Shown here: piece after piece, positions 10,590 through 44,631 of the stretch | Layout: each line of letters opens with the position of its first letter | Numbering within the stretch: position 1 is the first letter of the stretch | Origin: Pseudogymnoascus verrucosus | Taxonomy: Eukaryota | Length of the DNA stretch: 64,000 nucleotides | Direction: 5' to 3' (one strand) | Assembly: GCA_001662655.1 (NCBI GenBank) | Contig: KV460256.1 | The notes under the pieces: generated by a model | Database searches by the model: none | Told to the model about the DNA's origin: nothing | What the model saw: only the letters and a program-made list of their open reading frames with translations | Position numbers and translations under genes: made by a program

Positions 10590-10693
10590 GGGACTGTTAG
10601 GACTGTTAGGACTGAAGTTGTCTGAAGTTGTCTAAAATTGTCTGAAGTTGTCTGAAGTTGTCTGGAGTTGTCTCTGAAGTTGTCTGAAGTTGT
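10590..10693. repeat. Compound minisatellite: GGACTGTTA x~2.5, then GAAGTTGTCT x~8
   Basis: Tandem 9-mer and 10-mer units directly visible, 40-145 bp upstream of the trans-ER start. Confidence 0.9.
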
Positions 10694-11137
10694 CCCCGTG
10701 TTCTTTGGCTGGAAGTTTCTCTCGTATCTTATCTGCATAATAGGAATCGCCAGGGTGCGACAGAATGGAGCCCAATATATAATAAGCCTTAGGTCACATC
10801 GTCGTGAGGAAGTGGCACTGCTGCTGCACTGTTGTTGCATGCAGCTGATGCTCGAAGTCGCCGGTCATCATCAGCGGAGCTCCTCATCTGAATGGCTGAA
10901 AATCGCCGAACGTTAGAGAGACCAAGGAAACCCATAGCGCGAGATCAATTTATGTAGACAGTATAATCTAGAATGACAATTTATCTCCAACCGCATATCC
11001 AGATCAAATGGTCTCTCCTATCGCCTTTCCAACTCGATCAAACATCAGAAAAGTGTCGCTTTGCTGCTGTCACGTGAATCACGTGATAATCTTCTCCTTC
11101 CCCGTTATTACCCCAAACTCTATTCCGGCGCTTTGAC

Positions 11138-20076: not shown

Positions 20077-22440
20077 ATGATTAGCTCCTTCTCGCTCAAA
20101 CATTTCGTCGGCGCCGTCGCCTCCACGGCGGTTCTAACAGACTTAGTTAATGCGCGCTCAACCGGTCAGTACTGAAGGCGCTTCCTCCCGTCTATGAGTG
20201 TTTATGAACCTGACCTTTTGCTAGGCATCGAGGTTAATGGAACATCCTTCGCGCTCAACGGCGAACATGCAACATACCGGTTCCACGTCGACGAGCTCAC
20301 GGGGGACCTGATTACCGACCACTTCGGTGGTGCAGCTACGGAAGACATCTTGCTAGCAGAACCCCGGATCAACGGTTGGGTTGAGTTGCTCGGCCGAGTA
20401 AGACGAGAGTATCCCGACCTCGGCCGAGGGGATTTCCGTGTTCCTGCGGTGCGAATTCGTCAATCCGCCGGATACACCATCAGCGATCTCCAGTACAAAT
20501 CGCACAGTGTCGTCCAAGGTAAGCCTGGTTTGCCGGGTTTGCCTGCAACTTTTGGCGATCCCGAGGATGTTTCGACTTTGCTCGTCCAGATGTACGACAA
20601 CTATAGCTCCATCGCGGTTGACCTGTCCTATTCCATCTTCCCAAAGTACGACGCTATCGTCCGAAGCGTCAAAATCACCAACCAAGGAGAGCACAACATC
20701 ACCGTCGAGAAGTTGGCTAGTCTCAGTGTCGACCTGCCGTATGATGACCTGGAAATGGTTGAGCTAAGGGGAGACTGGGCCCGCGAAGCAGCGAAGGTTA
20801 GGAGGAAGGTTGAATACGGGACTCAAGGGTAAGTGAATACAACCAGGAAGCACCTATTTAATGCTAGCAAGACTTGTTTGCTAACGGCGATATCCAGTTT
20901 TGGCAGCACTACTGGCTATTCGTCGCACCTCCACAACCCATTCCTAGGGCTCGTGACCTCAACGACGACTGAGACTCAAGGTGAGGCTTGGGGATTCTCT
21001 CTAGTCTACACGGGCTCATTCTCCGCCGAAGTCGAGAAAGGCTCACAGGGCCTCACTCGAGCCATGCTCGGCTTCAACCCTTACCAGCTTTCTTGGCCAC
21101 TAGCCCCTAATGAGAGTCTCACCACACCTGAGTGCGTCATGACGTACTCCATGTCGGGACTTGGAGGGATGTCGCGGAACTTTCACCGTCTCTACCGCAA
21201 CCACTTGATGAAGAGTAAGTATGCTACTAAAACCCGCCCAGTTCTGCTGAACAGCTGGGAAGGCCTTGGATTTGACTATAATGAATCTACAATCTACACT
21301 CTTGCCCAGGAGTCGGCAAAGCTTGGCGTTAAGCTATTCGTGCTGGATGACGGGTGGTTCGGAAAGGAATATCCTCGTCTCAGTGACAATGCTGGTCTCG
21401 GCGACTGGGAAGTGAACCCGACCCGCTTCCCTCAGGGACTACCGACCCTCGTGGATAAAATCAATAAGCTTAAGGTCGCAAATTCGTCGGTAGACCTGGA
21501 GTTTGGACTCTGGTTCGAACCCGAAATGGTTAACCCCAACTCCACTCTGTACCATGAGCACCCCGAGTGGGCCATGCACGCCGGCTCATATCCCCGAACC
21601 CTAACGCGAAACCAACTGGTGCTAAACGTAGGCCTGCCAGAGGTGCAGGAATTCATAATCGACACCGTGTCCAGCATCCTGAGCAAGTCATCCATCAGCT
21701 ACGTCAAATGGGATAACAACCGCGGAATCCACGAGACTACCAGCCCTAGCGACGGTCACACCTACATGCTAGGCCTGTACCACGTCCTCGACACGCTCAC
21801 ATCTCGGTTCCCCGACATAATCTGGGAAGGCTGTGCCTCCGGCGGCGGCCGCTTCGACGCCGGAGCCCTCTATTATTTTCCCCAGATCTGGACATCCGAC
21901 GATACCGACGCCGCCGAGCGGATCTCCATCCAATTCGGGACATCCCTTGCATACCCGCCCTCATCCATGGGCGCCCACATCTCCGCCGTCCCCAACGGGG
22001 TCACAAACCGCAACACCTCCATCGAGTTCCGCGCCCACGTCGCCATGATGGGCGGCTCATTCGGGCTCGAGCTTAACCCGGCTGACATGCCCGAAGACGA
22101 TAAGGTGAAGTTCCCCGCCATCATCGCGCTTGCGGAGAAGATCAACCCTGTCGTCATCCAGGGTGACTTTTGGCGACTGAACCTGCCGGAGGAGTCTAAT
22201 TGGCCCGCGGCCCTGTTTATCGCAGAGGACGGCAAACAAGCTGTGCTTTTCTACTTCCAGATGCGAGCGCTGATCAACCACTCTTTTCCGTTTGTGCGTC
22301 TGCAGGGGCTGGATCCGATGGTATCGTATAGCGTTGATGGGAACAAGACGTATTCTGGGTCCACACTAATGAATATCGGGCTGCAGTATGCGTTCGATGG
22401 CGATTATGATAGTCGGGTCGTGTTCATTGAGAAGGTCTAG
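20077..22440 (+). CDS. aglC: Alpha-galactosidase, glycoside hydrolase family 36, probably secreted
   Basis: Signal-peptide-like first exon ([20 protein letters not shown]); introns 20165-20224 and 20829-20897. Motifs [45 protein letters not shown]. Confidence 0.93.
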
Positions 22441-22765
22441 ACGTGGAGGTTTTATGTGATAATGGAGGTGGGGTATGGTAGGGAAGGATTTTGGAGGAGG
22501 GATAGAGGGGTGGGAGTGGGGGGCAAGGTGCCGGAGCTTTGTTGCTGTCAATCCCGTATAGCAGAATTAGATATCAGGTGAATGTGGTTATACGCATACT
22601 TACGAATATTGACCGTTAATTTCTTCCTACTTTCACTCCGCCACTTAACCGTATCCTGGTTTGAGGGCAATTCATTATGAGCTGTATTCTAGAGTACTTA
22701 AATGGTTGCATTGTGGCAGTTTTGGGGCAGTAGGGTTGGATGACCACCTACAATCAGGGTCGTCA

Positions 22766-22771
22766 CCGAGG
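22766..22771 (+). promoter_or_regulatory. Candidate FarA/FarB site (CCGAGG) upstream of the acyl-CoA synthetase
   Basis: Exact hexamer about 550 bp upstream of ATG 23317; a short motif that may be chance. Confidence 0.35.
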
Positions 22772-23316
22772 GGAAACGAGCAAACTCTGCGAGTGTCATT
22801 GTATAGTAAACTTCATGTAGAGGAGCATGGACTTATGTAAATGTCGGAGAAATGTTCGGGTTGGTGATTCCCTTTGTTTCTTCGCTTCCTCGCTATAAAC
22901 ATAGCGCGAATCGGTAGGTGGGGTCTACCCCGCATTATGGGTACCGAAGTTATTCCAGCAAGGCCGCGGTACGACATATTTATTGTGATGCCATTACACA
23001 ATATGAGGATAGGACGAGGACAGGACGTGGAGAGCTGGGAGTTGGACAGAAATAGTTGGCGATGTTTAGATACGAACACGATGTAAACACCTTCGTGCTT
23101 TAAATAATAGGCTGGTACTATCAATCTTTCCTTCCTCCGTGGTGGCTTTCGCCCCTTGGAAATGATACCGAGCCGCGGTTATCTATAATTTTGTAGGACA
23201 TAGTAGCTCGAGCTATTGTCAGCCGCAAGGTCCCTTTAAATATATTATGCGATAGCCATCGTAGTTGAACATCTGTTTAAAACACCTCTTATAAAATCTA
23301 AAAGAATAAGGTCGCC

Positions 23317-25570
23317 ATGGCATTAATAACAGCAGCGGCGGCGACAGCAACATGGATGTACCTCGATGCGAAATACTCCATCCGCAGCGACATTGCTCAA
23401 ATCCGCGGAGGGTATAGCGTCCAGAAATACGTCCAAAAACTATTCAAGATCCATGGCGAGCATGATTGGTCGTTCTACCACGTCCTCCACGCCACATACG
23501 GCCTGAATGACGATACCGAAGCCCTGGTATTCGAGTCGCGGAGCTGGACATATGGCCAGCTCCGAGGGGAGATAGGACGACTGTCAGAGACCTTTCAGCG
23601 CATGGGAATCAAGAATCGAACTGTCGTCGCCATGTTTGTCAATAACTCCCCAGAATTCATGTTTGCCTGGTGGGCGCTGTATAAGCTCGGAGCCATCCCG
23701 GCGCCGATAAATACGGCGATTACGGGGGAGCATATCAGACATTGTTTGAGGATCAGTGAGGCGGAGTTCTTGATTTCGACTTATGAACTTTATGGCATTG
23801 TGGCGGGGACGTTGTTTTCAGACGACGGAGAAGGGGCGCGCTCGGAGTCCGAAAACTCGATTCATCCTGAAGTCCCGCTTCTCAAAGGAATGGTTCTTTA
23901 CGACTGTGATACGTACTCAGCCACGGAGTGTGAGCTTTTGGCAGAAAGTGTAGTCCTTATCAGACACAGCGATCTTCCACCAGTAACTCCGGAGATGGGT
24001 GATTTCCCCAAGGCATCCAGACCACACGTTGCTCTCGGTGATACCGGTCAATATCTCTTCACGTCGGGCACTACCGGTCTACCAAAAGCGACAACCTGGC
24101 CTTCGGGATATAGTATTGTGGGAACTTGCCCTGGCCGCCATCCAGGCATGAACGACAAATATCGCCGCTTCTATATCTGTTTACCCATGTTCCACGGGAC
24201 AGCAACGTGAACCCCCCCCGTCCCATCACCTAAGAAAATATCGTAATATCTGACTTTCCGATCCCAGGTTCGCAGCTCTACCAAACACCTTCTCCTCATC
24301 CGGCACCATCATCCTCGCTCGCCGCTTTTCCCGCCGCCAATTCTGGGACGACTGCCGCCGATCCAACGCCAACGCCGTGCTCTACATCGGCGAGATGCTG
24401 CGCTACCTCGTCCAAGCCCCACCAGATACCCAGTTCCCCGACGAGAAGAAAATGCACAACGTCGACCTCGCATTCGGTCTCGGATTGGCACCAACGGTCT
24501 GGCGGCAGTTTCGCGAACGATTCGGCGTACCGTGGATCGTGGAGTACTACTCTGCCAGCGAATCGACGGTGTCGTTGGTGAATAGCAATTTCAACGATTA
24601 TGGGCTGGGGAAGGTGGCGCACTGGGGTCCGCTTATGCGGAGTAAGTGGTTTGGCCAGAATAGCTTTTTTATTGTGAGGACAGATATCGATACGGGTGAG
24701 GTGGTCAGATCTCCGGAGACGGGGTTTTGCATAAGGGCTGAAATTGGGGAGATTGGGGAGTCGATTGTTAGGATTGCGCCGCCGGTGCAGAGGAGGCATG
24801 ATTATGTTGGGGAAGGGGGGGTGGAGGCGACGAAGAAGAAGGTGTTGAATGATGTCTTTGAGAAAGGCGACGAGTTCTTTAGATTGGGAGATGCGCTCAT
24901 GATAGTATGTCAATTCCCCCCTTTACACTCACCGAGATCATGCAGGTACTGATATAGTTCCTTTAATTTAGGACAATGATGGATTCATATCCTTCCACGA
25001 CCGTCTGGGCGACACCTACAGATCAAAGGGCCACAACGTATCTACCACCGAAGTCGAAGGTTCATTCAGCAAGCATCCCAGTGTTGCCTCGGTCAACGTC
25101 TACGGTATCCCAATGAACCACCACGGGTACGATGGCCAACTAGGCTGTGCCGCTGTCACATTCCGCAGCGACTCATCGGGTGGTGAGCAAGAAATCGTCC
25201 GGGAATTGGAAAAGTGGCTCTTGACCTCGCAGGGCGCATTGCCGGCCTACACTGTGCCAAGGTTTCTGCGAGTTCTCGTGGACACCGAAGGGACTAGTCA
25301 GGTTGGGATGGGCGGTGGTGATACGGGGCAGGAACGAGTGTCGTTGATAATGAAGAAATTGAAGACGGGGCTCCGGAAAGAAGGTTAGTTCGTCCCCGGG
25401 GTTGCTGTCTTTTGACGTAGGTTGCTGATTATGGCATTGTGATTCTAGGCTTTTCAATTCCGACAGGTTGTAAAGACAGGTTATATTGGATTGAGAGAGA
25501 AGGGGCGGGGTTTGTGCCTTTCACAAAGGAGGCGGAGCAGTTGCTACTATCGGGGAAGGCTCGTCTTTAG
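23317..25570 (+). CDS. FATP / very-long-chain acyl-CoA synthetase family protein (Fat1/CefD1-like) with C-terminal PTS1 (-ARL)
   Basis: AMP-binding LFTSGTTGLPKA; LPMFHG; YIGEMLRYL; EYYSASE; FATP motif DVFEKGDEFFRLGD..FHDRLGDTYRSKGHNVSTTEVE. Three introns (from 24207, ~24905, ~25384). Ends LSGKARL-stop. Confidence 0.92.
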
Positions 25571-25758
25571 TTTTATGAATTTACTGTATATAATTAGTCG
25601 CACATATTGAGCTGCTACAGAAATTTCGAAATACACCGCGAGAGATGTAGAATAAATATCATTAGAAGCCCATAAAGGAATCATAAGTTAAGATAAAAAA
25701 AACATTTCTCATTATCATTCTTTAAACTCCAAATCAAACAGACCCATGTAATATAACA

Positions 25759-28139
25759 CTACATATCAAACGAGGTATCATTAAACCCAAGGTCTGCAGA
25801 TTGATCCAATCCAGTAGTAGCCCCGTCGAAGTCAAGCATGTATATATCGCCAAAAAAATCCATATCCTGCGTGTCATTCAAATATGACTGCCCAAAAAGC
25901 TCATCCCTCACCCCCCAAGATGGGGAAGCAGGTAACAGATTCGACGGCATGGAGGCGGGTATGACTGGAAACAGCTTCTGCAATTCTTCCTCTCGCGGCT
26001 GCGTATCTGTCGGTGGTGGAATACTCTTAGCCTCAGGCTCGAGAATAGAGAGACCAGCTGCACGAGCGGCGGCGCGAAGGAATTGCAGAGCGCTAACCGC
26101 GGTGCCGTAGGCTTCTTGGAGGATCTGGAGAAACTCCATGCTCTGCTTGATTTCATCGGGGACGGTTGGTGGCGGGGGTGATTTTACGGATTTGAGGTCG
26201 AGCACGTGAACCATGGCGGCTGCTACGACAGTACCTACTGCTGTTGTTGAGGAGTAGGGGAGTAGGCCGAGCTGGTGGAGATTTTGGTTCACGCGAGTTA
26301 TCTCCAAGGAGGCTTCGCGGACAATGCGCTGGGGGGTTTGCTGGGGGTCGTTTTGGGTGGAATATTCCCAGGACAAGCCGCTGTTTAGTGTTTTATGTCC
26401 ATGCAAGACGGCGATGGCTCCGTAGTATAGGATGTAGATGTTGGCCTTGGCCATGATGAGGCAGCGGTCTGCAATATCGTAGTTCTCTTTCGACACATTC
26501 TCGTATAGCAAGTCTTTTGGCGTTGCTACAAGCCATTGTTCGATATTTTTCGCGCAGCTGTCCATATCTTCATATGGAGCCTGGCTATATGTCCCGTTAT
26601 ATATATCCTGGGAGCCACCGTCGACTTTCCGGCGATTAGCAAAGATTGAAGAGACAATGTGACAGATACAAACGCATAGTTTTGTATGTTCTATGCATAG
26701 AAGGGCCAGTTCCTTTTGTCGCGCTACATCACCCGAATATGTGCATTCCAAATATGAAGCGCTATCTGGCAGCGAGCCGATATCGAAGTCGTCCAAGGTA
26801 AGCATGGGGACATTGTAGTATGTCAACCTCGATGGACGTCCTAATGCCAGTGCGAGCTTCTGTTCACGGCAAAAACTAGTCCACCACAGACGCCTCCATA
26901 TTCGTATTTTGTCTTTCCCAACCTTGGATTCGACTGGGTCAAGATGTAGGCCAATAGTGTGTCCTAATGAGATTGCAGTGCCGCTCCAGAACCAGGGATC
27001 CTTTTTCTCGTCTACTCCAGGGTACCAATTACTCAGAAGTAAAGCTGCTTGGATCGAAATGAATCGATCCGGCTCGGTGTCAAAATCATAAAGAAGCTAC
27101 AAAGCATTAGCTTATATTCGACATCAACAGAGTTGGAACACACACCTTTGCCCTTATAAAAAACGACATCCGTGCTGCCCGCTTGGAGGGGTAGCCAGCG
27201 CGTATAACATGGTCGTTTTCGACAAATGCCAATGCGGCGCACATGACAGCATTAAAAAGCAAAAGACTTATCGTACCGCATTTGTCATTTCCACGTTGTG
27301 TGATTGTCAACAAGTTGTGCAGATCTAATAAGGGGAATAATGGATGCTGTAACTCAAGGTACCGTGAAGCGCAGATATGTCGGAACTCTGCACTGGGGAC
27401 TGAGAAAGCGCCATTGCTGGAAAGAAACTGTAGAACTGTCTTGTCTAGGCGAGTTGGTAGTGGCGATATATAGGGAGGCAAGCAAGGAATGGCTTCCCCG
27501 ACACTACCTTGGGTGATGGGTGCGCAGTCGAAATAGCTATCGCAGTAGAAATAATCCGATGAATTCGAACTAATAGCGGACGTTGTAGGTGGATCTTGCT
27601 CACAAGAAGATTCTCCTATAGTTGTTCCGGCAAGCTCGTCATTTTGATGTTGAGACGAGGATTGGTTGCCAGACGACATGTACTGGGACCAGTCCAGCCC
27701 ATTATGATCAAAGCTGGCTACACTCGTAGGAGAAGTGGTCGATGGGGTTTGCGCACAGGACGTACGCCCATTCGTTGCCCCAGGAGGTTCTTTGTTCTGG
27801 TGTTGAGATGCAGATTTGTCACCAGACAACGTGTATTCAGACCAGTTCAGGCCATTATGTGTAAAGTTGTCCATAGGCATTTCATTGACAGTCGGGGGGA
27901 TTCGTACAGGACGTGATACTCTGGGGAGAATTGAGTATGGCATGTCAATGGAGTCTGGGACATACTGACCGATGTCTTCTATTCCTAACAGTAACACACT
28001 TGACAGAATCCAAACGACAATTGGTACATGGTGGTCCACTTTCGACTACATTACAACGGACCTTCCTTGATCGACACGAGCTGCAGGCTTTCGCCGCACG
28101 ACGCTTGACCTTATGACCAGTCGCAGCTTGATTCTCCAT
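25759..28139 (-). CDS. Zn(II)2Cys6 transcription factor with Fungal_trans domain, FarB / cutinase transcription factor 1-beta-like
   Basis: KRRAAKACSSCRSRKVRCNVVESGPPCTNCRLDSVKC is the zinc-cluster pattern typical of CTF1-beta/FarB relatives. Middle region ISLLLFNAVMCAA and RRLWW. Two introns inferred (~27.9 and ~27.1 kb). Confidence 0.88.
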
Positions 28140-28685
28140 CGTAATTGCCACTCCTGCAAGAAAGTAAAACTGCTAGATAGATGGAAAAATACACTGAAGA
28201 AAGATATTTTACGCAGACAAGGAGCCGGGAATGTCGGATTCTTGGAACTGCGCGATCGGGGATGTTTGGGGGCGGGTTGTGCGGGGTAATTGGGAAGAAT
28301 GAAGCCGTGCGGGGGGTTGTGTGTGGGGAGCTTGCTGTAAGCCAAGTCAATGGTTTGGGTGTAAAATTCCACTTAACCCGTCTCTTGGGCCACTTTGATG
28401 TCTGTACGTGCGTGAGGGGAAGTGTGGGGTAGCTCTTTCCACCCGGCGTCGGGTAACCTCCGGACTTCCACCACGCAATATCGCCATATCAACGGCTTCA
28501 TAATGTCTATCGCAATGCATATATCACCAAAACATGCTATGAAGCCCGGGATGCTCCATAGGTCTCCATTATTCTTACATTTCTGGTTACGTTGTCTGAC
28601 ACAAAAACATGGGGTTTCTGGGGATTATGCGGGGTGGTGGGGCAGTGGCGCATGGTTTTTACCTATTCGAGGTAAGTTTAGATAG

Positions 28686-28691
28686 CCTCGG
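28686..28691 (-). promoter_or_regulatory. Candidate FarA/FarB site (CCTCGG on +) in the TF/permease divergent promoter
   Basis: Exact hexamer about 155 bp upstream of permease ATG 28845. Confidence 0.35.
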
Positions 28692-28844
28692 TTTTCTATT
28701 GTTCGGCAATGTTATTGGATCTTCAATGTCACTGCTTAAACAGTCGAATATGGAGGAATATGTCGTTGATATAAAGAAGGTTTCCAGTGACCATGTCGGG
28801 GCACATAAACTCCACATTTAGTAGGGGAGCTTCTTCGAATCAAC

Positions 28845-30743
28845 ATGGCAGCCAATACCAACTCAACAGAAAAGGGGGTCGATGTGGTTGCACGTCATGA
28901 TGAAGAGAGCGCCGATTCAGAGTTTCCACAAGAGAAACCATCATCATCACAGGGTTCTGAAGTAGAAACAGTCGATCATCCACGTCTGAAGAGCATTAAA
29001 AGAAAGGTAGATCTTCGGATCTGCCTTGTTCTTGGATGTCTATACACGATATCTCTCTTGGATCGTGTCAATTTACCAGTGAGTCTCTCTGTTGCTTTGG
29101 ATAATTTATTGTATATATAGAACTAACGAAAAATAAAGAATGCGTACGTCTATATTGCTTTATGGTATTCCTGCCCTCACTATATTCGAGACTGATCGTC
29201 TGGATAGGGTAGTCGCTGGGATGGCCAAAGACCTCAAATTGGTTGGCAACCAATATGTGAGAGATGCACCCTTTTTGACTCAATTAGCTTTGCTGATATA
29301 TCCAACAGTCGTTGCTTGTCTTGGTCTTTTTCCCTTTCTATATTTCCTTCCAGCCCCCTATGACAGTCATTGCCAAGAAGCTCGGCCCCCGGAACTTTTT
29401 AACTGGCATTGTTGTCAGTTGGGGTCTAGTTATGGTAGGACACGGCCTTGTTCCAAATTGGAAGGTGATGCTTGCTCTCAGGTGCTTGCTTGGTCTGTTT
29501 GAAGCTGGCTTTTTCTCTACTTGCGTGTATCTTCTGAGCACCTGGTATGTCCGAAGTAAGTCTCGACCAACATTCTCACGCCCTGCATATTTACTAAAGT
29601 CTTCAAACAGGGGAGGTTGCCAAAAGAAACGCAGCTTTTTATCTTCTTGGATCGTTCTTTGCTGGGTTTGGTGGCATCCTAGCCTATGGAGTTTCGAAGA
29701 TGGATGGAATCGCAGGAAGAGAGGGGTGGAGATGGATTTTTATCATCGAAGGGGTTCTAACAGTCGCAATGGGTGAGAAATGTCCCATATTTTCTTGTAG
29801 CAAACATGCTAATAAACACCCACCATAGGTTTGATTGCATTCTTTTTTTTGGTCGACTTCCCAGAAAAAGCCATGAATTCATGGAGGTTTCTTAACGAAG
29901 ATGACCTAAAGATCATCGTCGATCGCGTGGAGCGGGATCGAAGCGATGTTGTTGCGCCTCCATTTAAACTCGGCGAGTATCTTAAAAACGGACTAGACTG
30001 GAAGGTCTACTTTTTCGCGGCAAACTTCGGCCTTTCTTCTGTGGTCACTTACGCTGCTGCCTACTTTCTCCCCATCGTCCTTCGCGACGGGCTTCATTTT
30101 TCCGTCGCTGCTGCACAATGTCTCAGTACACCAGTAAGTAACGGGAGCCCATTTCACCATTTTGTTTCACTTCTAACGCTGCCCTTGAAGTGTTACGTTT
30201 TCGCTAGTATTCTTGGATATTCACAGGGTTATTGGTCGGACAAGATTAATATGCGCACGCCGTTCATCTTGTTCAACTGCCTGCTCGAGATCATTGGCGT
30301 AGCCGTCCTCGGCTTCGCGACCCAAAATCCAGCTCGGTACTTTGGAGCCTTCCTAATCATTGGTGGCGCCAACTCAAACATCGCTCTGGTTCTCACATAT
30401 CAAGCAAATAATATTGTGGGTCAATGGCGACGAGCTTTCTGCTCAGCAACCATTGTTGGAGCAGGTGGCATGGGAGGTATAATCGGATCCCTCACATTCA
30501 GAAGCCAGGATGCACCGGATTACAGGTTAGTTTTTCCATGCTTAACCAGAGAGCAGTCAATGATGAAACCCGAATCTGATCTTTTTAATGCACAGACCTG
30601 GCCTATATACTTGCCTTGTGGCGGCTATAATGGTAGCCCTCTCCGTTACAACTACAACAACTCACTTCTATTTTAAGAATAAAAAGCAGGCCCAGGGACT
30701 CATTGTCCTGGAAGGGTTGCCAGGGTTTAGGTACACGTATTAA
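28845..30743 (+). CDS. MFS transporter, Dal5/Tna1 (allantoate/nicotinate, anion:cation symporter) family
   Basis: Motifs RKVDLRI..LLDRVNL, RCLLGLFEAG, YLLSTWY, GWRWIFIIEG, ANNIVGQWRRA; ends with the family-typical FRYTY-stop. Multi-intron gene. Confidence 0.92.
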
Positions 30744-31236
30744 TTATTGGCAATGGCTCTTTAGTCTGGAATTCGAATTCTTTGACGGAGGAAAGTACAG
30801 CTGTTATATTAAATACATATCGAACCAATGTGAGAATGGCACTTTCTGCACCAAGTACAGATTAGAAACTAAGTTTCATATCCAAACATTAAACCGTATA
30901 TATTCTTAATTTGCGTAAAACTCTCGAATTGACTCTTGGATCTTGAAAGTTGGAATGGGCTGAATTAAAGATTGATGATCTCTGGACAATCGTGTTATGG
31001 AGTGCTATGTGATTTTAGGACATGACATCTCCGGCCAAATAACTCTATAGCGGAGCAAGCTACATACTTTTAACTATGGTCCAACGGCTCGGTGGGTTGG
31101 ATCTCGTGCAGATAAACTTCAGAAAGCAAGAATCTCAATATCTCCTTTAAGCTCTTCAGTAGCAATTTATTTAGATAATAACCATGTAGAACAATATATT
31201 TAAGCTGACTACATCATCATGCATCTACTCTCGATA

Positions 31237-33028
31237 TTAGTAAAAAGTCGGCTTAATCTTGCCATTTGCTCTATCCATGAGTCGTATGGGTAAAAGCACC
31301 TCATATCTGCATCTGATTAGCAAAATACATCTTCCCCGCAAGGAACACTTACACATGCTCAACCCAAGCACTTGTAATCCGCCTTGTCAGCGCTGGGTCC
31401 ACGATTTCTTCAGCTCCGAACGCATTTGCCGTCCGAACTGGATTCATCAATCGTCTATACTCCTCATCCAGCTCCTTATATCTCTTCTCTCTCGCCTCTT
31501 TTCCGCTCTCTTTTTCGATTTTCTTCAACTCCGCTGCATGTCCAACTTCAAGGCCGCCTTCCAAAGGCAAGCTTCCCCACTCACCACTTGGCCATGCAAT
31601 CCGCATCCGTGGATCTCGGCAGTCGAGCATAATGCCTCCTGCTACACCATAAGCCCTCCTGGTAACCACTGAAAACACTGGCATCGTGGTGCTAAAATAT
31701 GTAGTGCCAAGCGCAACACCATGTCTCATCGTTGCCGTGCGCTCTGCCACTGTACCAATCGCATAGCCTGGCACATCAACGAACTGCACAAGAGGGATGT
31801 TGAAAGTATCCAAGAACTTCAAATGCCGCGTTAATTTCTGGCTACCTGCTGCATCAAGTGCCCCGGCATTGACTTCGCAGTTTAAGCTGATAATTCCCAC
31901 TGGTCGTCCATCAAGGCGTGCAAGACCAGTAATAGCAGTCGTACCCCAAAGGCCGCCGATCTCAAACCAACTTCCAGCGTCGACAACGGTTTCGATAATG
32001 GTCCGGGGATTATACATCCTCTCCTTCTTCCGCGGGATAATAGTCCGCAAGTTCTGACAGTCGCGTTCAACTCGATCTTCGCTATTGATTACTGGTGGCA
32101 GCGCCAACCCATGGTTGGGCAGATAGCTTAACACAGTGCGCAACTGCTCAAAGCAGCCCTCTTCATCTGGCGCTAGATTGTCAATTGTCCCGTTTGTGCA
32201 ATGCATCCCTGGGCCACCAAGGTCCGTAAATGACAACCCTTCCTCGAAGGTTGCGTTGGCCACAACCTTAGGGCCAGCATTGAAGAGGGACCCGATATCC
32301 GCCGCCATAACTGAAAAGTGACATGAAACAACCCTCGCCGCACCAAGCCCAATAGCCGGACCTACAACAGCGCCTAGGTTGGGAATCCCAAGTTCTAGCT
32401 GTTTGGCTACCTCTTTAAAGGATGGCACTCCAGGAATATAGCTATACCCCAACGTCTTAATCGTCGTAACGCTTCCGCCGCCAGATGATCCATCTACAAG
32501 CTTGATGATAGGGAGTCTTAGTTCAATCGCCAGATTCTCCATGTAAATCGTCTTCTGCATCAACGCGCCATCTGCGTGCCCTGCGCGAATCGAGAAATCA
32601 TCCGCGGTAAACACCACTTTTCTTTTTCGTAGTGCCCCAAAGCCTTGAACATTGTTGCTCGGAATGAAGTGTGTAGGTTCCTCTTTTATTCCGGCTAGCT
32701 TTTTCCACTGAACAGTTCCAGCCACGGAGCCTATCTCATGGACAGACCCAGGGTCAAAGAGACGATTGACCCGCTCGCGGACCCAGAGTTTTCCAGCGGC
32801 TTTTTGGCGAGAATAACCAGCGTGCTTAGGATCTGGTGTTACAGCGAATTTTTGCAGCGTTGATATTTGCGAGAGGATGTCCGAGTAGTCTACGGGAAGA
32901 GCGTCCGCGGATTTATGACGGCGTTTGCGGGACGTATTTTGTAAGGGGCTGATGTGGTTTGTGACTTGTGAGAGACGGTCCTTCGGGCTAGAGCTTGAGG
33001 AAGCAGTTTTATCGCCTGGGGGGATCAT
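31237..33028 (-). CDS. Acyl-CoA carboxylase carboxyltransferase (beta) subunit with N-terminal PTS2-like nonapeptide
   Basis: Motifs GKLWVRERV, DDFSIRAG, GLARLDGRPVG, FVDVPGY, RRAYGVAG, AWPSGEWG. A 46-nt intron (31307-31352) leads to last exon YEVLLP..KPTFY-stop. Residues 18-26 read RLSQVTNHI. Confidence 0.92.
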
Positions 33029-33263
33029 GGTCTATATTCTCAAATGTGATAAGAGGTATGTGGTTGCGAGATGTCAACTGTGCCAATTGATTTTGGCGTG
33101 GCAACAAACAACTTTCTATCGAAATCCGGAATTGAGTGTTACTAGTGGTATTTATTATGATACCTCATAATATTACGACCAAATCAATAGGGTAATTAAC
33201 TTAAGGGAGGAAGTTACGTCGTCCTTAAGAATTATAGATTGCCGTCGGTACGAGGTACTGCAC

Positions 33264-33274
33264 CCGAGGCTCGG
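33264..33274 (+). promoter_or_regulatory. Candidate FarA/FarB site within palindromic CCGAG-G-CTCGG in the carboxylase bidirectional promoter
   Basis: CCGAGGCTCGG lies near the middle of the 426-bp spacer between the divergent subunit genes; ACGAGG variants flank it. Confidence 0.45.
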
Positions 33275-33454
33275 TGGCGTCTGTCTCACCAAACATTTTG
33301 GGCTTGCGGGGTACCATAACGAGGCTGCGATGGTATTGTTTACTGTTCATGGGTTTCGCAATTGTGTGAGCTATACATAGCATTATAAATACCTTTTTAT
33401 TACCCTTTTTTTACCCCTAATTTTACTTTACTCTATGAAAGAACTTCTTGCAAT

Positions 33455-35472
33455 ATGGAAGCACCACGACCGCCATTACGTCCTATTAGGCGACTTCTCA
33501 TCGCAAATAGGCAAGTCAACGTTGTCAGCAGCACTAATAGTCCAAGTCATTGACCATTTGTAGAGGCGAAATCGCAATCCGTATCCTTACCTCAGCTCGC
33601 GAACTCAACATTGAAACCTACACCCTTTACTCCCCTGGCGACACATCTCACAGCCCGCGCTCCACCTACTCCCTTCCAATTCCATCTGCCTCCACCTACC
33701 TCGACATTCCAGCCCTCATTACACTCGTTAAAGCCAACAACATAGATGCTATCCACCCCGGATATGGCTTTCTGTCAGAATCCTCAGAATTCGCACACCG
33801 GCTATGGACGGAGGCAAACGCAGTTGTGATTGGGCCAGGATGGGAAACACTTGCAAGAACTGGCGATAAACTCGCCGCGCGCCAATTAGCAGAGGAATCT
33901 GCTGTCCCCGTGCTACCCGGTCTACACACTCCAACAAATAATATAGAAGATCTAAGAAGTTTCGCGAGGCAAGTTGGATGGCCGATCATCATTAAAGCAG
34001 TTGATGGGGGCGGAGGCCGAGGAATCCGCATCGTGAGGGAGGAAGCAGGTCTAGCAGATCTGATGGAGAGAGCAATGAGAGAGAGTCCACAGGGATTATT
34101 GTTTGGTGAGAAAGCAGCTATCGACGGCTTTAGGCACGTAGAAGTGCAAATTGTGGGAGACGGGCATGGAAATATACGACACCTGTGGGAGAGAGAATGT
34201 TCGGTACAGAGGCGATTCCAGAAGGTTGTCGAATTTGCACCAAGCTCTATTAGAAACAGAGAGGTAGTGGGTAGAGTTATCGATGCTGCAATGCGGATGG
34301 CAAAAAGAGTGGATTATCTCTCGCTCGGAACGTTCGAGTTCCTTGTCCACAGCTCGAAACCCGAATTCTACTTTTTGGAAGTCAATCCGAGACTCCAGGT
34401 TGAGCATACCATTACAGAGTCATTGTGTCCTGGCCTTGATCTTGTTAAAGTCCAACTCCAGGTTGCAATGGGACAATCACTAGAAAAGCTACTGTCACAC
34501 ATTCCACGAGATCCTCGCATCCCACCAGCTCTCAACTCAATGCAGCTCCGTATCACTTCTGAAGACGCCTCGGCCGATTGGTCGCTGAGCATCGGAAAGA
34601 TCTCATCATTCACTTTACCAGCAGGAAATGGAATCAGAGTTGACACTCACATCGTGCCTGGTCTAATTGTTAAGACGGATTTTGACAGCCTATTGGCGAA
34701 GGTTATTATCACGACATCCGGTTGGGAAGATATGATAGCAAAGGCCAAACGAGCTTTAGAAGACACAAACATCAGTGGAGTGACGACCACGCTTGATGCC
34801 CTACGTGGCATCATTTCTCACCCTGATTTTGAAGCTCAGAATTGCGATACTCAATGGCTTGAGAAAACCCTGCCTCGAGTTCTAGAAGCTGGGAAAACAT
34901 TCACTGCCGCCCTCCCTAAGCCCATTGCGTCTTCCACGACACCTTCAGGGGTTGGATTTTCAACCGCATCAACAGGTGTGCCCTTCCGCAAAGGAGATGC
35001 GTGGTCCATCTCTCTGTCACCAGAAGGCGCCAAAAACGAATCTCCACCAGCCCACCTCCTGCTCACGAAGGTCTTACGCAATGAATTTCCAACCTCCCTA
35101 TCAGCCACTATCCTCTTTACCCCGCCATCCGGAACTCCGCAGCCCTATACTATTTCATTGGCTTCAACGACAGCCTCAGCGGGCTCCCTGGCCTCAGGTT
35201 CTAAGCATCGCCGTGGTGATGCGAGCAACCCAAATCACATCATAATCCCGTTCCCAGGGCAGCTAGTGGAGATTATGGTCGATGTAGGAGATGTCATTGC
35301 AAAGAATGATATTATCGCTGTTGTCAAGCAAATGAAGATGGAGCTCGAGATCCGAGCAAGTAGATCTGGGATTGTGAGCTGGGTGTATGAGGGCGAGGAA
35401 GAGGATGAGGTTAGCGAAGGAGTGTTGGTGGCGGAAGTTGTGGAGGAGATCTCGAACAGAGCCAAGTTGTGA
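33455..35472 (+). CDS. Biotin carboxylase + biotin carboxyl carrier (alpha) subunit of an acyl-CoA carboxylase, with C-terminal PTS1 (-AKL)
   Basis: LLIAN|RGEIA is restored by a GC-AG intron (33511-33563). Motifs IHPGYGFLSE, KAVDGGGGRGIR, RECSVQRRFQK, FLEVNPRLQVEH; biotinyl domain QMKM. Ends SNRAKL-stop. Confidence 0.93.
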
Positions 35473-35937: not shown

Positions 35938-38002
35938 TCATTTTGCTACTTTACTCTCATATAAAGAATCCGAAGTCCTGGAATCTAAATAAGCCAGGAT
36001 GCGCGGGTACGAATCGCGAAACTTCCGTGCTGTTGCTACAAGTGGTGAACTGAGATTGTTATCGATTAGCTCCAGCATAATTGCGCCGACAAGGCGTATC
36101 TTTGCTACGCATGACTCTCCATTTATACGCAGATAATCTAGTTCACAACTGCTTACTATATGTAGCATACTCTCTGCGATGTTTATTTTTTGTAGGAGCA
36201 ATGCTGAAGATTCGCCAGTTCTGAGTCGGATTTCCTTTGCGGATTCGAAGACTGCTGGATCAATCTTCGTTGCCGAGGCTGAGTCTGGTTTACGTTTCGA
36301 CCATAGCTGACTCATCGAGTCTGCGAGCGCTGGCATTGCGTGTAGCACGACCATTCGCAGGCATTGGAAGCTGATTTGTAAATTTACTCTCTGAATTGCC
36401 AGTGCCTTTAACCCCCGGTTTGTACCAACTTTCTCCTGAATACCGAAGCTTGATGTAGAATTGAAAAATGTCGGGTGGGATTGAAGTCCGCTTGGTAGAG
36501 CATCTAACGATGTTTGAAAGCCAAGATAGAGCTCAATGAGCCGGGAGATATCTGCTAGTGTAGCATGTTGCTGGGATGGGTTGGATCCAGGGCGGACAAG
36601 GAAGCGTTCTCGTAACAACTCGATTTCTAATAGTAAAGTGTACACGGAACTCCACAGCTCATAGTTGAGATTGAATCCTGTTAGCATGTCTAGATTCTCG
36701 TCCTCCATAGGATCAAGTGCTGAACAAGTCAAACTGTCCACTTTCCCAAGACTGCGTGCGTACGGTATAATCATGTCTCCATCCAACGCGAATTTACCCA
36801 TAACAACGGGATGGTTGCTAAGGATGCTGGCAGACTTGTCTCCCACAAAGAGCAGCAAGAAGGCACGCCGGCAAAACTCACTTTCTACGTCGTTCATATG
36901 CGCATACGAGGTTTTGTTATGTAATCGCATGCCTTGGCATATTCGAATGGCATCTCCCAGGCTGTGCCAAGATGACCGTAGTTTTCCAGTGGTGTGATTA
37001 TACTCTGCGTGGAGATATCTGATGGCAATGGAAGTTGAAGTAGGATTTTCGAGATCTTCGTTAAGGTAGGTATTTAGAGTTGCTCTTGAGGCATGGTAGA
37101 AATATACCGCAAGCTCTGCCTTAACAGTATTTGTTTTTTGGGGGAGGACAGCGATTGTCACAGCGCACACACCTGTCAGTATAGCCAATAAAGGTGCTTC
37201 CTTTTGCAACTGTCGGTCGTTGATCTGACATATTGCAAGATCTATATCCGGTCTATGGATAATTGGCATCAGAGGGTACAGGTTGTCAAAAAATGAATCA
37301 ACACAGTCCGTGAGTAATGATTCCAGCCTCCGAGAGTCATCAATTTCATTGATAGCAATATCCAAGTTGCGAATTATAGCCTCAATCTGTGAATCACGGG
37401 TGGCACAATCTCCGGTAGGTGCTAGTGGGCTTGCGTATGCCGTCTGGCTTGTTGGCGGACTGTCCTGATGAATGGATGTCGACACAACATCGCTACCAAC
37501 ATATTGTGGTGTTATCGGATTACCAGTCTCAGAAAACGCATCGAAGCTAACAGGGGAAATAACTGTAGATGACAGACGACGAGGATGTCTATTTGGAATA
37601 TGGGTACCCTCTAGAATGGGCGCTTCGCCCCTTTTCTTTCGCCCGCGTTTCCGGGAAGGTAAAAAAAATTCACAATTCAAAAGTCGGATTTCACAATTGG
37701 CACATGTTGGCCGTCGGAGGTCACACTTTAAAGGTTAGCTATACGCTGAAAGGCAACGAGGGAAGGATGATGCTAGAGGGATGTTTTGCTAAGCTGTTGA
37801 TCTATGGAAGTGCACTTACCTTGACTTTGCGGATACGACATCGATCACATGCACGACTCAACCTCTTTCGTTCAGAAGCTTTCTCTGAAGTTGCGGGAAT
37901 TAAACACTCGGATTCGTCCGCCACATGAGCGATGCTTTGAATATCTTGCCGGTCGTATTCATTCTCGACTGTTGAATTGTCTACTGGAAAAGAATTATCC
38001 AT
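35938..38002 (-). CDS. Zn(II)2Cys6 transcription factor with Fungal_trans domain
   Basis: RACDRCRIRKVK|CDLRRPTCANC..C completed by intron 37726-37819; FFDNLYPLMPIIH and RRAFLLLFVGDKSA. Divergent from the GH43 gene. Confidence 0.9.
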
Positions 38003-38700: not shown

Positions 38701-40584
<1,884 letters not shown>

Positions 40585-41039
40585 CGCCGAGCTCCTCTCG
40601 AGATGGAAAGTGTTACAAATCAAGAGTCGTAGCTCTTTGATGAGCAGCAGTTCTTGTTTCCACGTGGGTCTATGATGGGTTTCACACCGTACCCGCGGGT
40701 CATGCCACACCAGTGCGAGTCTGTTTCCCATTTCAGGGTGTGGCCGCCTGTGTCTGAGCTAACTGCCTGGCCTACAGCATCAGCTAAGTCTGCAAATGAA
40801 CAAAGACTCAACCTCACTATGTAGACTGTCCCAAGAATCCATTAGATATTAGAGTGTTGTTATATTTAGCTATTTAAAATCATATTGAAGCAATGTTTCA
40901 GCCTTCTCAAGAAAGAGCACACCTGTGGTGTTAGGGTCGGCCTTGCATTACATGGGAAGGGACACCAGCAGCACCAACATAGGCAATTTGATTCAGCGAA
41001 CAAAAGCTGCAAGTATATAGAAAAATGATATTTTAACAG

Positions 41040-42278
41040 CTAAGAGCTCGAACAGGTAACTCCTGTTATTGTTCCTCCATTTTTCGTGCAAATAACCTTG
41101 GACGTACCAAGCGGTGATAGTACACTATAACCCGTAAAACTAACATGACATGCTCCAGCTGGACAAGTTACTTCAGAGGTAGTTGGCTCATAGTGAGCTG
41201 ATGTTTTCCCCGAGAAGTTAATTAAATTAATGTCCGTGAATTGCGCAGTGCTCGGATATGATGCACAATAAGCGTCTGTTTCGCCGTAGCAGCCCCCAAG
41301 TTGTATAGCATAATCGCTCGCATCAACTACAACGTTTGCCCAGGTAACGTTTGAGACTATAGCAGACCCATGGTTTGGTCCGCTTGGGTAAATCTTGATT
41401 CCAACTGCTTTAGCTGAGGTGACCATGTCGGCGCCATCAACATAGATGTTCTTGACGGTATCCACAGCTCCATATGATTTTCCAAGGGATCCGACGGAGA
41501 GGCCATGCGAGCCTGTACACTTGATATTGGTCACAGTAACGTAGTTGCAACCGGCTTTGAATGCAACGCAGTCGTCCTGATTGCTGACTGTCGTGTCAGT
41601 TATCGTGACATAACTGGCATCCCAGATATCAAACCCGTCCGTGTTCTTAGGCGCGTAGGAGCTCTTGCTGGCAGCAGTCAGATATAGAGAGGCGAATTTG
41701 ATGTTTGAACTCCCACCCCCGGCATAAAAGAAAATACCAGGGGGGTTCTTAAGGTGGATGTTCTTTATGATGATGGATGTGGAGCCTCCTTTAATCGAGT
41801 ACAGTGCTGGTCTCTTCAGACTGCTGTTGGTAGCAAAAATATCGTAAGCGTTCTGTCCATTGCCATCGATGACTCCTGTTCCAAGCAAACTCTGAACTGT
41901 TGCCCCTTTAACGCCGCTCATGAGAAATATCTCAGAGTGGTAGTACCAATAGTCGAGGTCATTCGATGCTTTGAGGGTGCCTTCGATGTTGAATATACAG
42001 CCAGTGCAGCCTTTAAAGTCAACAGAGGATCGAATCGCATAAGTAACCCCCTGTGGGATGACAATCGTGCCTCCAGCACCGCAAGAGCTGATTGCATCTC
42101 TGATTGCAGGAGAGTCATCGATCCCAGAATTACCAGCAGATACTGGTGTACATGTTGCTCTCTTAGCAAGTGCAAAGGTCTTGTCCGGCGTACGTTCAAC
42201 GGAGAATGGAGCCGCTGTTGCAAGACCTGCGAAGAGACCAATGATGGAAATGGTACGAATAAATTTTAAAAGTGTCAT
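41040..42278 (-). CDS. xghA: GH28 pectinase, probable endo-xylogalacturonan hydrolase, secreted
   Basis: Signal peptide; NTDGFD, QDDC, GSHGLSVGS. The usual RIK motif reads GIK (KAVGIKIYPSGPNHG), as in XghA-type enzymes. Intronless. Confidence 0.85.
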   Translation of the reverse strand: MTLLKFIRTISIIGLFAGLATAAPFSVERTPDKTFALAKRATCTPVSAGNSGIDDSPAIRDAISSCGAGGTIVIPQGVTYAIRSSVDFKGCTGCIFNIEGTLKASNDLDYWYYHSEIFLMSGVKGATVQSLLGTGVIDGNGQNAYDIFATNSSLKRPALYSIKGGSTSIIIKNIHLKNPPGIFFYAGGGSSNIKFASLYLTAASKSSYAPKNTDGFDIWDASYVTITDTTVSNQDDCVAFKAGCNYVTVTNIKCTGSHGLSVGSLGKSYGAVDTVKNIYVDGADMVTSAKAVGIKIYPSGPNHGSAIVSNVTWANVVVDASDYAIQLGGCYGETDAYCASYPSTAQFTDINLINFSGKTSAHYEPTTSEVTCPAGACHVSFTGYSVLSPLGTSKVICTKNGGTITGVTCSSS

Positions 42279-42900
42279 TTTGGGAGTGAAGGTGTTGTCT
42301 GTAAAATTTTCATTATTATTCCCACCAAGAAATGCTCAGAGTATAAATACACATGAAATCCATATCGTTGCTCAAAGTAATCATCCAAAACCTCCCCTCT
42401 TGAATTGAAATGAGTCTGGTGACCACATTCTATACCGTGTTGTTTAGAGTTTATATGCTCGAAGATTTATATCTCACATATTCATGTGATGTTATAAATT
42501 ATGTTAATACGTACACTACGGATTTGGCGTTGAAATATCCCGCGGGAAATACCTGAAAGTGCAAAAAACTGTATCATAGCCTAGTTCGGATATTTTGAAC
42601 CTAAAACTCCGCTCTGAAGATTAACATTGCCGAAAAGCTTCGGAAAATAGGTTAAAGGCATTTAGGCTACAAGTTATATAATTTAACATAGTTTATTCTC
42701 TCATTTTTAATCCTCTTTCACGTTTTGCAAGGGAAGTATGACCTGAATTCTAATAATTGCTCTATGTCTTGTATTTTTGACCGAGAAAATGATCCACCAA
42801 ACATGGAATTGCTTCAGGGGCCTGGGGAAGTGTATAAAGTGTGGTAGAGCACCGCCCGAATGATAAATAAAAAAAAGTGTATGTGCCATATATTGCAATC

Positions 42901-44172
42901 ATGTCTGCTCTAACAACTATTCTTTTTATAGTTCTTGCTTCAGCTTCATTCTTTGGGGCTGTATCGGCACACCCATCTTCGGTTGAGAAAAGAGGAATAT
43001 CTCGGACCTCCCCTCCATCCGGCTGTCTCGTTGTCAGAGGCTCAGGTACCAAAGCAGGGGAATACGGCACCATAAGCTCGGCAGTAGCTGTTCTTTCGGC
43101 AACAGCAACTAGTTGCATTTTCATATATCCAGGTATTTATGCCGAGTCAATCTACATAAAGAATAGGGGCCCGCTTACTATATACGGGTCGACAACCAAG
43201 TAAGTTCTTAATCAGCAAAGCTCCACAATCTAATTAAACTTATTAGCTCTGGGAACTGGAAATCGAATACGGTGACAATTACTCATGGAATTGGCTCATA
43301 CGATGCTGGGTCTCTAGACGCAAGCTCTGCGATGAACGTTGTCAGCAATGATGTGAACATATACAATGTCAATTTTGTAAATACGTATGGTACAGCCGGT
43401 CAAGTGAGTCACGGTCTTGGTCAAAGAGGCTCCTGTCTAATTTAGCTTTAGGCAGTTGCATTGACAGCAAATGGCGAGAGGCAAGGCTACTATGGATGCT
43501 CATTTAAGAGCTACCAGGATACCTTGTACGCAAAGGCAGGCTACCAGTATTACTCGAACTGTTATATTGAAGGTAATTTCTGATTTCTTTACTTTTTTAT
43601 TTTTTGGTAATTCTGTATCTGACAAAAATCAGGCGCGGTGGACTATATATTCGGTGATGCTAGCGCATGGTTCGGCGAATGTACTATGGCCTCGAGCGGA
43701 GGAGGTTCGATTACGGCAAGTTCTCGAACTTACGACACAGACACGGCCTGGTATGTAATCGATCATAGCACGGTACGTTAATCCCATCAGATATCCTTCG
43801 CTGTGAGCATTTTCTGACTTTGAAGCAAAGGTCACTGCGGCATCAGGGGCAAGCGTCACTGGAATTGTCTTTCTAGGTCGGCCGTGGCGTGTTTTTTCCA
43901 GAGTTATATATCAATTTTCAACACTAACAAACGTCGTCAATGCTAAAGGATGGGCACCAATGACGGATGGAGCTACCCCGTATGTTGAACACTTTAATGT
44001 TGATCGTTTCATTTGCTAACCTCGGTGTTTTCCTAGAATTTTTGAGGAGTGGTCAAACACAGGCGCAGGTGCTTCAACATCAAGCCGTGTTTACTATACA
44101 GCTGCCACTGCGCCTGTTACAAAAGGGCAACTTTGGCCGTTAGGATACTCATGGATTGACACAAGCTTTTAG
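42901..44172 (+). CDS. Pectin methylesterase (CE8), secreted
   Basis: Signal peptide MSALTTILFIVL. Spliced motifs GQ|AVAL, YQDTLY, IEG|AVDYIFG, LGRPW, EEWSNTGAG. About five short introns. Confidence 0.92.
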
Positions 44173-44631
44173 TCTTTATTTATTTGAATCGATGGGTGAT
44201 ATGAAGGCTGTTGAATTGATCTAGCGCTTCTTTTATCATCTCATTAACCTCTTTCGCTTTTTGATTGTTACAATTACCAATTTTACCTTTATTTATGTGC
44301 TCTTGACTATGATTAAAAATAAGAAGTAATCATCATTATTAGAGCTTGTTTTAGTCGATCAATCTGTAATACAACCAATGTCTCTAAACAAACCTATAGA
44401 AATATAAGCTTATAGTACAGTCCTCTAGTTCATCGAAAATGTAGACGGTGGCCTTTCTTCGATGATTTAAACGTGGCCCTATTTGAAGTTAATGGTCTTC
44501 TCGGACAGATTAATGATCTTACAGTACGGAAGCAACTAAAATTTAAACTAGACATCGGATTGCAAACTTTGAGAATATATCTAATTTAGACTACATAATG
44601 CGAAACATTCTCTGATTCTTTTTGATATCCT

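Follow-up and report, generated by a model that had tools for sequence, protein, structure and literature searches.

A divergent two-subunit biotin enzyme of fungi with conserved peroxisomal-type targeting signals

A 64,000-nucleotide stretch of contig KV460256.1 of Pseudogymnoascus verrucosus (assembly GCA_001662655.1; hereafter the window) carries five neighbouring genes at 23317–35472, all intact and with canonical splice sites. Two of them are divergent, lie 426 bp apart and encode a pair whose sequences support a two-subunit biotin-dependent acyl-CoA enzyme distinct from methylcrotonyl-CoA carboxylase (MCC). The alpha subunit (33455–35472, plus strand; exons 33455–33510 and 33564–35472; 654 aa, ending in -RAKL) combines biotin carboxylase (BC) and biotin carboxyl carrier protein (BCCP) domains, and the beta subunit is a carboxyltransferase (CT; 31237–33028, minus strand; exons 33028–31353 and 31306–31237; 581 aa). 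This conserved, peroxisome-tagged pair is of more interest than the five-gene cluster that surrounds it in Pseudogymnoascus. The reading that we tentatively favour is a peroxisomal heteromeric biotin enzyme that acts at the alpha carbon, belongs to the Far regulon and works in the catabolic, decarboxylating direction.

Subunits, targeting signals and promoter sites

The pair holds a BC with ATP-grasp motifs, a BCCP with a biotinyl lysine and a CT of two crotonase-fold domains. Pfam assigned BC and Biotin_lipoyl domains to the alpha subunit, with no pyruvate carboxyltransferase domain in its 654 residues, and Carboxyl_trans to the CT. The biotin-acceptor Lys610 (35335–35337, plus strand) lies in a QMKM motif, found as QMKME in all 120 homologues compared, and the BC catalytic motifs, including those of the ATP-grasp, occur in 115–120 of the 120. 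In the structural model of the alpha subunit a small additional beta domain stands between BC and BCCP (residues 498–554, low confidence). No single-chain protein matched the linker (residues 456–580) by BLAST, and the fold search barely covered it, which leaves a BT/PT-like domain there no more than conceivable. The BC tree does not settle the origin of the alpha subunit; its row L102, out of frame, was disregarded. Both models are identical to Pseudogymnoascus database proteins (P0121 for BC-BCCP, P0001 for the CT), and the database names are 'pyruvate carboxylase' for BC-BCCP and 'propionyl-CoA carboxylase beta chain, mitochondrial' for the CT. Biotin carboxylases of fungi are usually assigned to the cytosol or to mitochondria. 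The first intron of the BC-BCCP gene (33511–33563) is of the GC-AG type, and the spliced model equals the database protein.

Of 8,000 candidates scored in a search with the CT, 1,420 matched at E ≤ 1e-30. The best 120, on which the signal counts below are based, are 72–100% identical to the query, and those with names come from Leotiomycetes and Dothideomycetes; one Sordariomycete was reached through the BC search and Eurotiomycetes through an Exophiala model. CT and BC have neighbouring locus tags in Oculimacula, Ascochyta, Neocucurbitaria, Botrytis and a Mollisiaceae isolate, and BC adjoins the CT in 6 of 19 metagenomic CT loci, being absent from four with more than 7 kb of upstream sequence (L003, L011, L012 and L014). 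Pseudogymnoascus holds two pairs, with 88% identity between the CT copies and 70% between the BC copies. A further CT/BC locus (L002:2917–21249; 85% and 80% identical) lies beside a fungal transcription factor (TF), a thioesterase-like gene and a major facilitator superfamily (MFS) transporter unrelated to the window permease, and may be an independent cluster.

The alpha subunit ends in the type 1 peroxisomal targeting signal (PTS1) -AKL (35461–35469, plus strand), present in the gene model and reflected in the homologue C-termini: all 120 end in x[KR]L and 91 in a canonical PTS1, and 13 of the 29 non-canonical ends are -ERL from near-identical Parastagonospora copies. None of the 120 CT homologues has a PTS1 at its C-terminus. 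The window CT carries at residues 18–26 (32951–32977, minus strand) the nonapeptide RLSQVTNHI, which resembles a type 2 signal (PTS2) and forms, in the AlphaFold model, a lone helix before a disordered linker. In 118 of 120 CT homologues a relaxed PTS2 pattern occurs between residues 1 and 60, in an otherwise variable N-terminus; one of the two others is a truncated model and one has a long extra N-terminus. The same pattern is found in 1 of 120 BC N-termini, 1 of 131 mostly bacterial relatives and 1.7% of shuffled sequences, so that the frequency of the signals in homologues is, by these sequence controls, above chance. The nonapeptide shares seven of nine residues with that of Histoplasma Pot1, RLSQVTSHL, whose import needs Pex7 according to the available part of PMC13343957. 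A basic, RKRR-like cluster follows the helix in most fungal CTs (residues 34–39 of the window CT, about 32912–32929, minus strand). The ligase of the cluster ends in the PTS1 -ARL in its gene model (25559–25567, plus strand); among 34 full-length relatives, 22 have a canonical PTS1 and another 5 the ending -AQL. An earlier reading of the window, made from its letters alone (the sequence-only reading), had pointed to peroxisomal-type signals on these three enzymes, and relatives of all three largely retain them, in relaxed PTS2 form for the CT. Because the signals are conserved, the pair is very probably imported into peroxisomes by both routes, the alpha subunit through PTS1 and Pex5 and the beta subunit through PTS2 and Pex7.

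The promoters add a regulatory link. The hexamer CCTCGG/CCGAGG is given as the FarA/FarB (CTF1) site in the accessible portions of PMC5068947 and PMC4117967. The cluster has three promoter regions with one such site each, in line with the Far-type regulation suggested before: within an inverted repeat CCGAG-N-CTCGG in the shared CT/BC promoter (33264–33274, no strand assigned), in the shared TF/permease promoter (28686–28691, minus strand; P 0.21 alone) and upstream of the ligase (22766–22771, plus strand; P 0.30 alone). Singly these sites are weak (P 0.08–0.30), and the hexamer is not enriched across the window (29 against 31 expected). Among the 19 metagenomic loci the CT start could be placed in 12, or 9 independent ones after near-copies were merged; in the window and in 12 of these 12, a Far-type site stands no more than 400 bp upstream of where the CT gene starts, compared with 22% of background 400-bp windows. 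A separate test of upstream regions used 13 of the 19 loci, with L004, L006, L008, L010, L016 and L019 omitted as duplicates or truncated. The inverted repeat surrounds the site in the window, L001 and L002. The conservation of the site upstream of the CT suggests that the pair itself, beyond this cluster, belongs to the Far fatty-acid/peroxisome regulon.

Lineage and modelled chemistry of the carboxyltransferase

CT trees were built with FastTree (123 of 133 rows) and IQ-TREE (60 rows), with anchors typed by PDB search as MCC beta (L104), propionyl-CoA carboxylase (PCC) beta (L101) and long-chain acyl-CoA carboxylase (LCC; P0421). Ten rows with BLAST cover below 380 residues, including the AccD6 anchor, were dropped, and neither tree included AtuC or another geranyl-CoA carboxylase (GCC) or a fungal MCC. 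The fungal CTs fall in a long-stemmed bacterial CT clade with support 100 and no characterised member among the names seen; its bacterial members include stand-alone chains and single BC-BCCP-CT chains. Approximately unbiased (AU) tests on 34 rows (LG+G4, quick trees) rejected a grouping of the fungal CT with the MCC beta clade (p-AU 2.8e-9), the PCC beta clade (p-AU 5e-72) and the LCC clade (p-AU 5e-6), and identity to the PCC-beta anchors is about 29–31%. Grouping with MCC, an outcome that would have counted against the sequence-only reading, was thus rejected, and its description of the pair as a divergent, non-MCC two-subunit biotin carboxylase is supported by this rejection and by the domains; the likeness to LCC that it had drawn does not hold at the level of clades.

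Within the clade, a 23-row subclade (support 98) unites fungi, the chytrid Synchytrium, Binataceae/Pseudomonadales-type chains and five BCCP-CT fusions (P0328, P0337, P0301, P0307 and P0331), two of them from Diplonema, which all end in a PTS1 of the form -AKL or -CKL. P0282 ends in -SKM. The Synchytrium CT (P0286) has an N-terminal polyketide-cyclase/START-like piece, possibly from a merged gene model, and no PTS1.

Domain connectivity of the CT separates the alpha-carbon lineage, with acetyl-CoA carboxylase (ACC) and PCC, from the gamma-carbon lineage with MCC and GCC, according to the sections available of PMC4673880. The AlphaFold model of the CT (pLDDT 88.6; 71 sequences) has PCC/ACC/LCC-type connectivity and superimposes on PCC-type, LCC and Deinococcus chains with an rmsd of 2.3–3.1 Å over about 470–500 residues (for transcarboxylase 12S, the Deinococcus CT and LCC, 2.8–3.1 Å over 469–498 residues). 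In contrast, the rmsd to MCC 8rth is 23.4 Å over 461 residues, and it spans 23.4–23.7 Å when glutaconyl-CoA decarboxylase 1pix is included. MCC and GCC beta chains score 89–134 bits against the CT sequence, with a weak 112.7 bits for the GCC structure 5ikl, compared with up to 206 for PCC-type chains. No MCC or GCC chain is among the top 50 structural matches of the model, which taken alone is no evidence. From the modelled fold and the lineage, the CT most probably works on the alpha carbon, converting a saturated acyl-CoA to its 2-carboxy (malonyl-type) CoA ester or the reverse. As the model fits alpha-carbon enzymes and misfits MCC, and the MCC clade is rejected, the analogy to GCC that had been proposed, in which gamma-carboxylation unblocks β-oxidation, is unlikely.

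PCC and the actinobacterial AccB-PccB-AccD enzymes share with the pair the BC-BCCP plus CT subunits and the modelled CT connectivity (Z 37–41, rmsd 2.4–2.8 Å); PCC differs in its separate clade at about 30% identity and in its mitochondrial rather than peroxisomal signals. We also know of no downstream mutase in these fungi. LCC (4rcn) and the Deinococcus single-chain carboxylase (5fif/5h80) have in common with the pair an alpha-lineage CT and a BC like that of pyruvate carboxylase (PC), and single BC-BCCP-CT chains (P0292, P0297 and P0302) are among the nearest relatives that the fungal CT has in bacteria. The fungal enzyme, however, is split into two divergent genes, stands outside the LCC clade and has the low-confidence beta domain in its alpha subunit. 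MCC and GCC (AtuC/AtuF) show the same BC-BCCP and CT layout in adjacent genes but the opposite CT connectivity and gamma-carbon chemistry. The top structural match is the Streptomyces alkylmalonyl-CoA-forming carboxylase (5inf/5ini/5ing; Z 42.2, rmsd 2.6 Å over 468 residues), which handles unusual acyl-CoAs; its identity to the fungal CT is 26%, its Z is nearly tied with those of other PCC-type chains, and no polyketide synthase (PKS) is linked to the fungal CT. By description, the pair can further be likened to the generic acyl-CoA carboxylases (XCC) that Lombard and Moreira (2011) reported from fungi and some green algae; the available text of that paper (PMC3199775) gives them no function and does not contain 'peroxisom'.

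Cluster conservation and bacterial context

The other three genes of the cluster are a FATP/Fat1-like acyl-CoA ligase (23317–25570, plus strand; exons 23317–24206, 24268–24904, 24972–25383 and 25449–25570; 686 aa, ending in -GKARL), a Zn2Cys6 TF (25759–28139, minus strand; exons 28139–27970, 27920–27146 and 27096–25759; 760 aa) and an MFS permease (28845–30743, plus strand; 494 aa, 8 exons, one of them a predicted 5-nt micro-exon at 29139–29143). Their Pfam domains are AMP-binding, Fungal_trans and MFS_1, respectively, and the ligase model is identical to database protein P0484. The five adjacent genes described earlier are therefore borne out, with intact and spliceable models, Pfam domains and database identity for three. 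The same arrangement is present in a second DNA sample, where a 13.8-kb contig of run X2 is colinear with 22500–35373 at 257 differences. No splice joints appear in the four contig sets aligned to the window, a result that carries no information about expression. The best NCBIfam match of the ligase is PRK08279, whose score of 409 bits is below the cut-off of 625, and its Atlas clusters are named very-long-chain fatty acid transport protein (score 0.99). The zinc cluster of the TF may resemble that of FarB/CTF1-beta. The permease reaches 51.9 bits against TIGR00893 on one exon (cut-off 395) with an Atlas label of MFS only, and is likely of the anion:cation symporter (Dal5-like) type. The labels 'FarB-like' and 'Dal5-type' are plausible.

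Ligase and this copy of the pair are linked in five Pseudogymnoascus assemblies, by locus tag (V499_00951/952/955, VF21_09726/727/730, V496_09711/712/717 and V498_00519/00514) or by one shared contig (23342-1-I1). For the second copy of the pair, the one seen for P. destructans, ligase linkage was not seen. The ligase subfamily is patchy (35 matches), with its nearest relatives in Chaetothyriales. In Exophiala xenobiotica, a member of another class, the CT and the same ligase subfamily stand in tandem (63% and 67% identity) and are fused in models of 1,280–1,300 aa (e.g. P0242) from many isolates; outside Pseudogymnoascus, ligase–CT adjacency was seen only in this species. Ligase and pair lie on separate contigs in Pseudogymnoascus WSF 3629, Verruconis, Eremomyces and Paraphoma, and in Cladophialophora bantiana the ligase is 54 tags from a divergent CT. 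None of the 19 metagenomic CT loci contains a ligase, TF or permease of the window type, the neighbours there being mostly housekeeping genes. Linkage of TF and permease was followed within Pseudogymnoascus. The earlier idea of a conserved five-gene module thus stands for several Pseudogymnoascus genomes, and for ligase–CT adjacency in E. xenobiotica, but in most fungi the pair stands apart from such neighbours. On our reading the cluster is a lineage-specific specialisation of a general enzyme, with the pair duplicated in Pseudogymnoascus, where ligase and permease are probably coupled to it.

Bacterial CTs of the same clade stand in a related setting on plasmids. Five of 17 matching plasmid loci were inspected, and all have BC, BCCP, and a CoA transferase or AMP ligase within 9 kb of the CT and regulators of the GntR, TetR, IclR or LysR type nearby; four have a tricarboxylate-type transporter, and no mutase is annotated in the five. 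These appear to be catabolic operons with the same logic of uptake, activation and carboxyl transfer as the fungal cluster. In the Cupriavidus operon (L128:6371–19491), genes for a transporter, CoA transferase, BCCP, CT and BC are followed by bioA-bioF-bioD-bioB and a P450. The Rhodococcus locus (L129:6166–19413) has two AMP ligases, CT, BCCP and BC with a methylmalonate-semialdehyde dehydrogenase nearby, a context that may serve as a lead towards isobutyryl- or dimethylmalonyl-type substrates. Among 80 GTDB loci, many of them short, BCCP lies near the CT in 16 and BC in only 4; acyl-CoA dehydrogenases and enoyl-CoA hydratases were found in 11 each by tblastn and in 16 and 12 by clustering. 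Of 83 ORFs listed near CT and BCCP loci, 39 were scanned, and none of these is a sodium-pump beta subunit.

Reaction direction, competing explanations and surroundings

In the scheme that we favour, the permease would import an organic acid, the peroxisomal ligase would activate it to a CoA ester and the local TF would provide regulation. The CT would strip the carboxyl group from malonyl-, methylmalonyl- or longer alkylmalonyl-CoA, which may be formed from dicarboxylic acids of the malonate, odd-chain or methyl-branched type; the BC, operating backwards, would discharge carboxybiotin and perhaps generate ATP, and the leftover acyl-CoA would pass to β-oxidation or the carnitine shuttle. Ascomycetes have, to our knowledge, no B12 mutase to use the forward product and no outlet for methylmalonyl-CoA; for this reason, and because the bacterial operons look catabolic and show no annotated mutase, decarboxylation is slightly preferred. 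A possible functional analogue is the mammalian peroxisomal malonyl-CoA decarboxylase, biotin-independent and of unrelated fold, which clears malonyl-CoA from odd-chain dicarboxylate β-oxidation. Several observations weigh against this scheme. With its BC wholly intact, the enzyme would by default be expected to carboxylate at the expense of ATP, the direction that cellular ATP ratios also favour. The strict PTS2 consensus is met by only 7 of 120 CTs, the last residue usually being I or V, and the signal is degenerate in L003, L004 and L014. The modelled connectivity may echo solved PCC structures, and CoA-activation genes lie near the CT in only 11 of the 80 GTDB loci. Finally, the tables available from the Histoplasma peroxisome proteome (2026) name no such carboxylase, although that design would not enrich proteins that carry biotin natively, and Histoplasma may lack the gene.

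The same peroxisomal alpha-carbon enzyme could instead run forward, carboxylating acetyl-, propionyl- or medium- to long-chain acyl-CoA from β-oxidation to (alkyl)malonyl-CoA at the expense of ATP, either for polyketide synthesis or chain extension in peroxisomes or as a propionyl-CoA sink. The complete BC with its invariant ATP-grasp motifs and fused BCCP would suit this direction, as would the structural matches to PCC/AccB and to 5inf/5ini (Z 42). Bacteria make alkylmalonyl extenders by a ligase and a carboxylase, as the title of structure 5ing states, and in the HMMER alignment a Gly stands opposite the Tyr beside the AccB specificity residue, which might mean a larger pocket. Nevertheless, the fungi have no linked consumer of the product, the nearest PKS (1–7284) being 16 kb away with unrelated genes between, and the bacterial neighbours are catabolic; we regard forward operation as only slightly less likely than decarboxylation. 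It is unlikely that the pair is peroxisomal while ligase, permease and TF are mere neighbours in a gene-rich accessory region, forming no pathway. The absence of the three genes from all 19 metagenomic loci, the mostly housekeeping neighbours there and the separate contigs in four fungi would fit such a view, but the Exophiala adjacency, the linkage in five Pseudogymnoascus assemblies, the targeting signals on ligase and pair, the Far site in all three promoters and the bacterial operons of like logic speak against it.

Two further explanations carry little weight. A GCC/MCC-like gamma-carboxylase working on a beta-methyl enoyl-CoA, the version first proposed, would let a branched or terpenoid acid pass through β-oxidation; FATP-type ligases activate branched acids, and acyl-CoA dehydrogenases and enoyl-CoA hydratases neighbour the bacterial relatives. 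We nonetheless judge it very improbable, given the connectivity swapped relative to MCC and glutaconyl-CoA decarboxylase (rmsd 23 Å), the rejected MCC clade (in a tree without a GCC sequence), the low MCC/GCC scores and a fungal cluster without dehydrogenase, hydratase or lyase. Likewise very improbable is a conventional propionyl-CoA or pyruvate carboxylase of the mitochondria or cytosol. Database annotations say so, and the best PDB sequence matches are PCC-type beta chains and PC BC domains, but the low identity to PCC-beta, the rejected PCC clade, an alpha chain without the pyruvate-CT domain and the conserved PTS1 and PTS2 signals contradict it. A bolder extension of the favoured scheme, which we hold to be rather unlikely as a whole, is an ancient class of peroxisomal biotin enzymes in filamentous fungi and distant protists. 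It would derive from a bacterial single BC-BCCP-CT chain split at different joints (BC-BCCP and CT in fungi, BCCP-CT in diplonemids), with each piece gaining its own signal. Working backwards as an (alkyl)malonyl-CoA decarboxylase that conserves ATP, it would complete the oxidation of dicarboxylic and branched acids. The fission step draws on CT trees and architectures, as the BC tree gives no resolution.

A full-text literature search found no characterised peroxisomal biotin carboxylase in fungi, in agreement with the statement in the sequence-only reading; key subscription papers and the Penicillium and Neurospora microbody proteomes lay outside that search, so an earlier in-silico mention is possible. 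The enzyme is not described in the available portions of PMC13596307, PMC7712234, PMC12125574, PMC8611851 and PMC9637915. A Paracoccidioides 'propionyl-CoA carboxylase', PAAG_02163, adjoins LamB (PMC4014450, in part) and is probably a different, urea-carboxylase-like enzyme. If the favoured scheme is correct, a peroxisomal carboxylase linked to the fatty-acid regulon would supply a step so far missing from the peroxisome metabolism of fungi, biotinylation would be needed before import or inside the peroxisome, and a single complex would enter by both PTS routes. Omics papers rely on many annotations as 'mitochondrial PCC' or 'pyruvate carboxylase' that would then need correction. The pair also gives initial access to a large, uncharacterised CT clade of bacteria and might provide a new alpha-carboxylase for unusual extender units; the ligase linkage in Pseudogymnoascus and Exophiala offers a direct route to the substrate.

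Elsewhere in the window, a second Zn2Cys6 factor (35938–38000) is convergent with the BC gene, and the 1 kb tested upstream of it contains no Far site. The region 1–12947 holds the reducing PKS with methyltransferase (KS-AT-DH-MT-KR), which extends past the window start, together with a Zn2Cys6-like ORF, a trans-enoyl-reductase-like gene and a TRI12-like MFS pump, 10–16 kb from the ligase. Carbohydrate-active neighbours (GH36, GH43, GH28, a PHB-type esterase and an alginate lyase) flank the cluster at 20176–22440 and 38925–54627.

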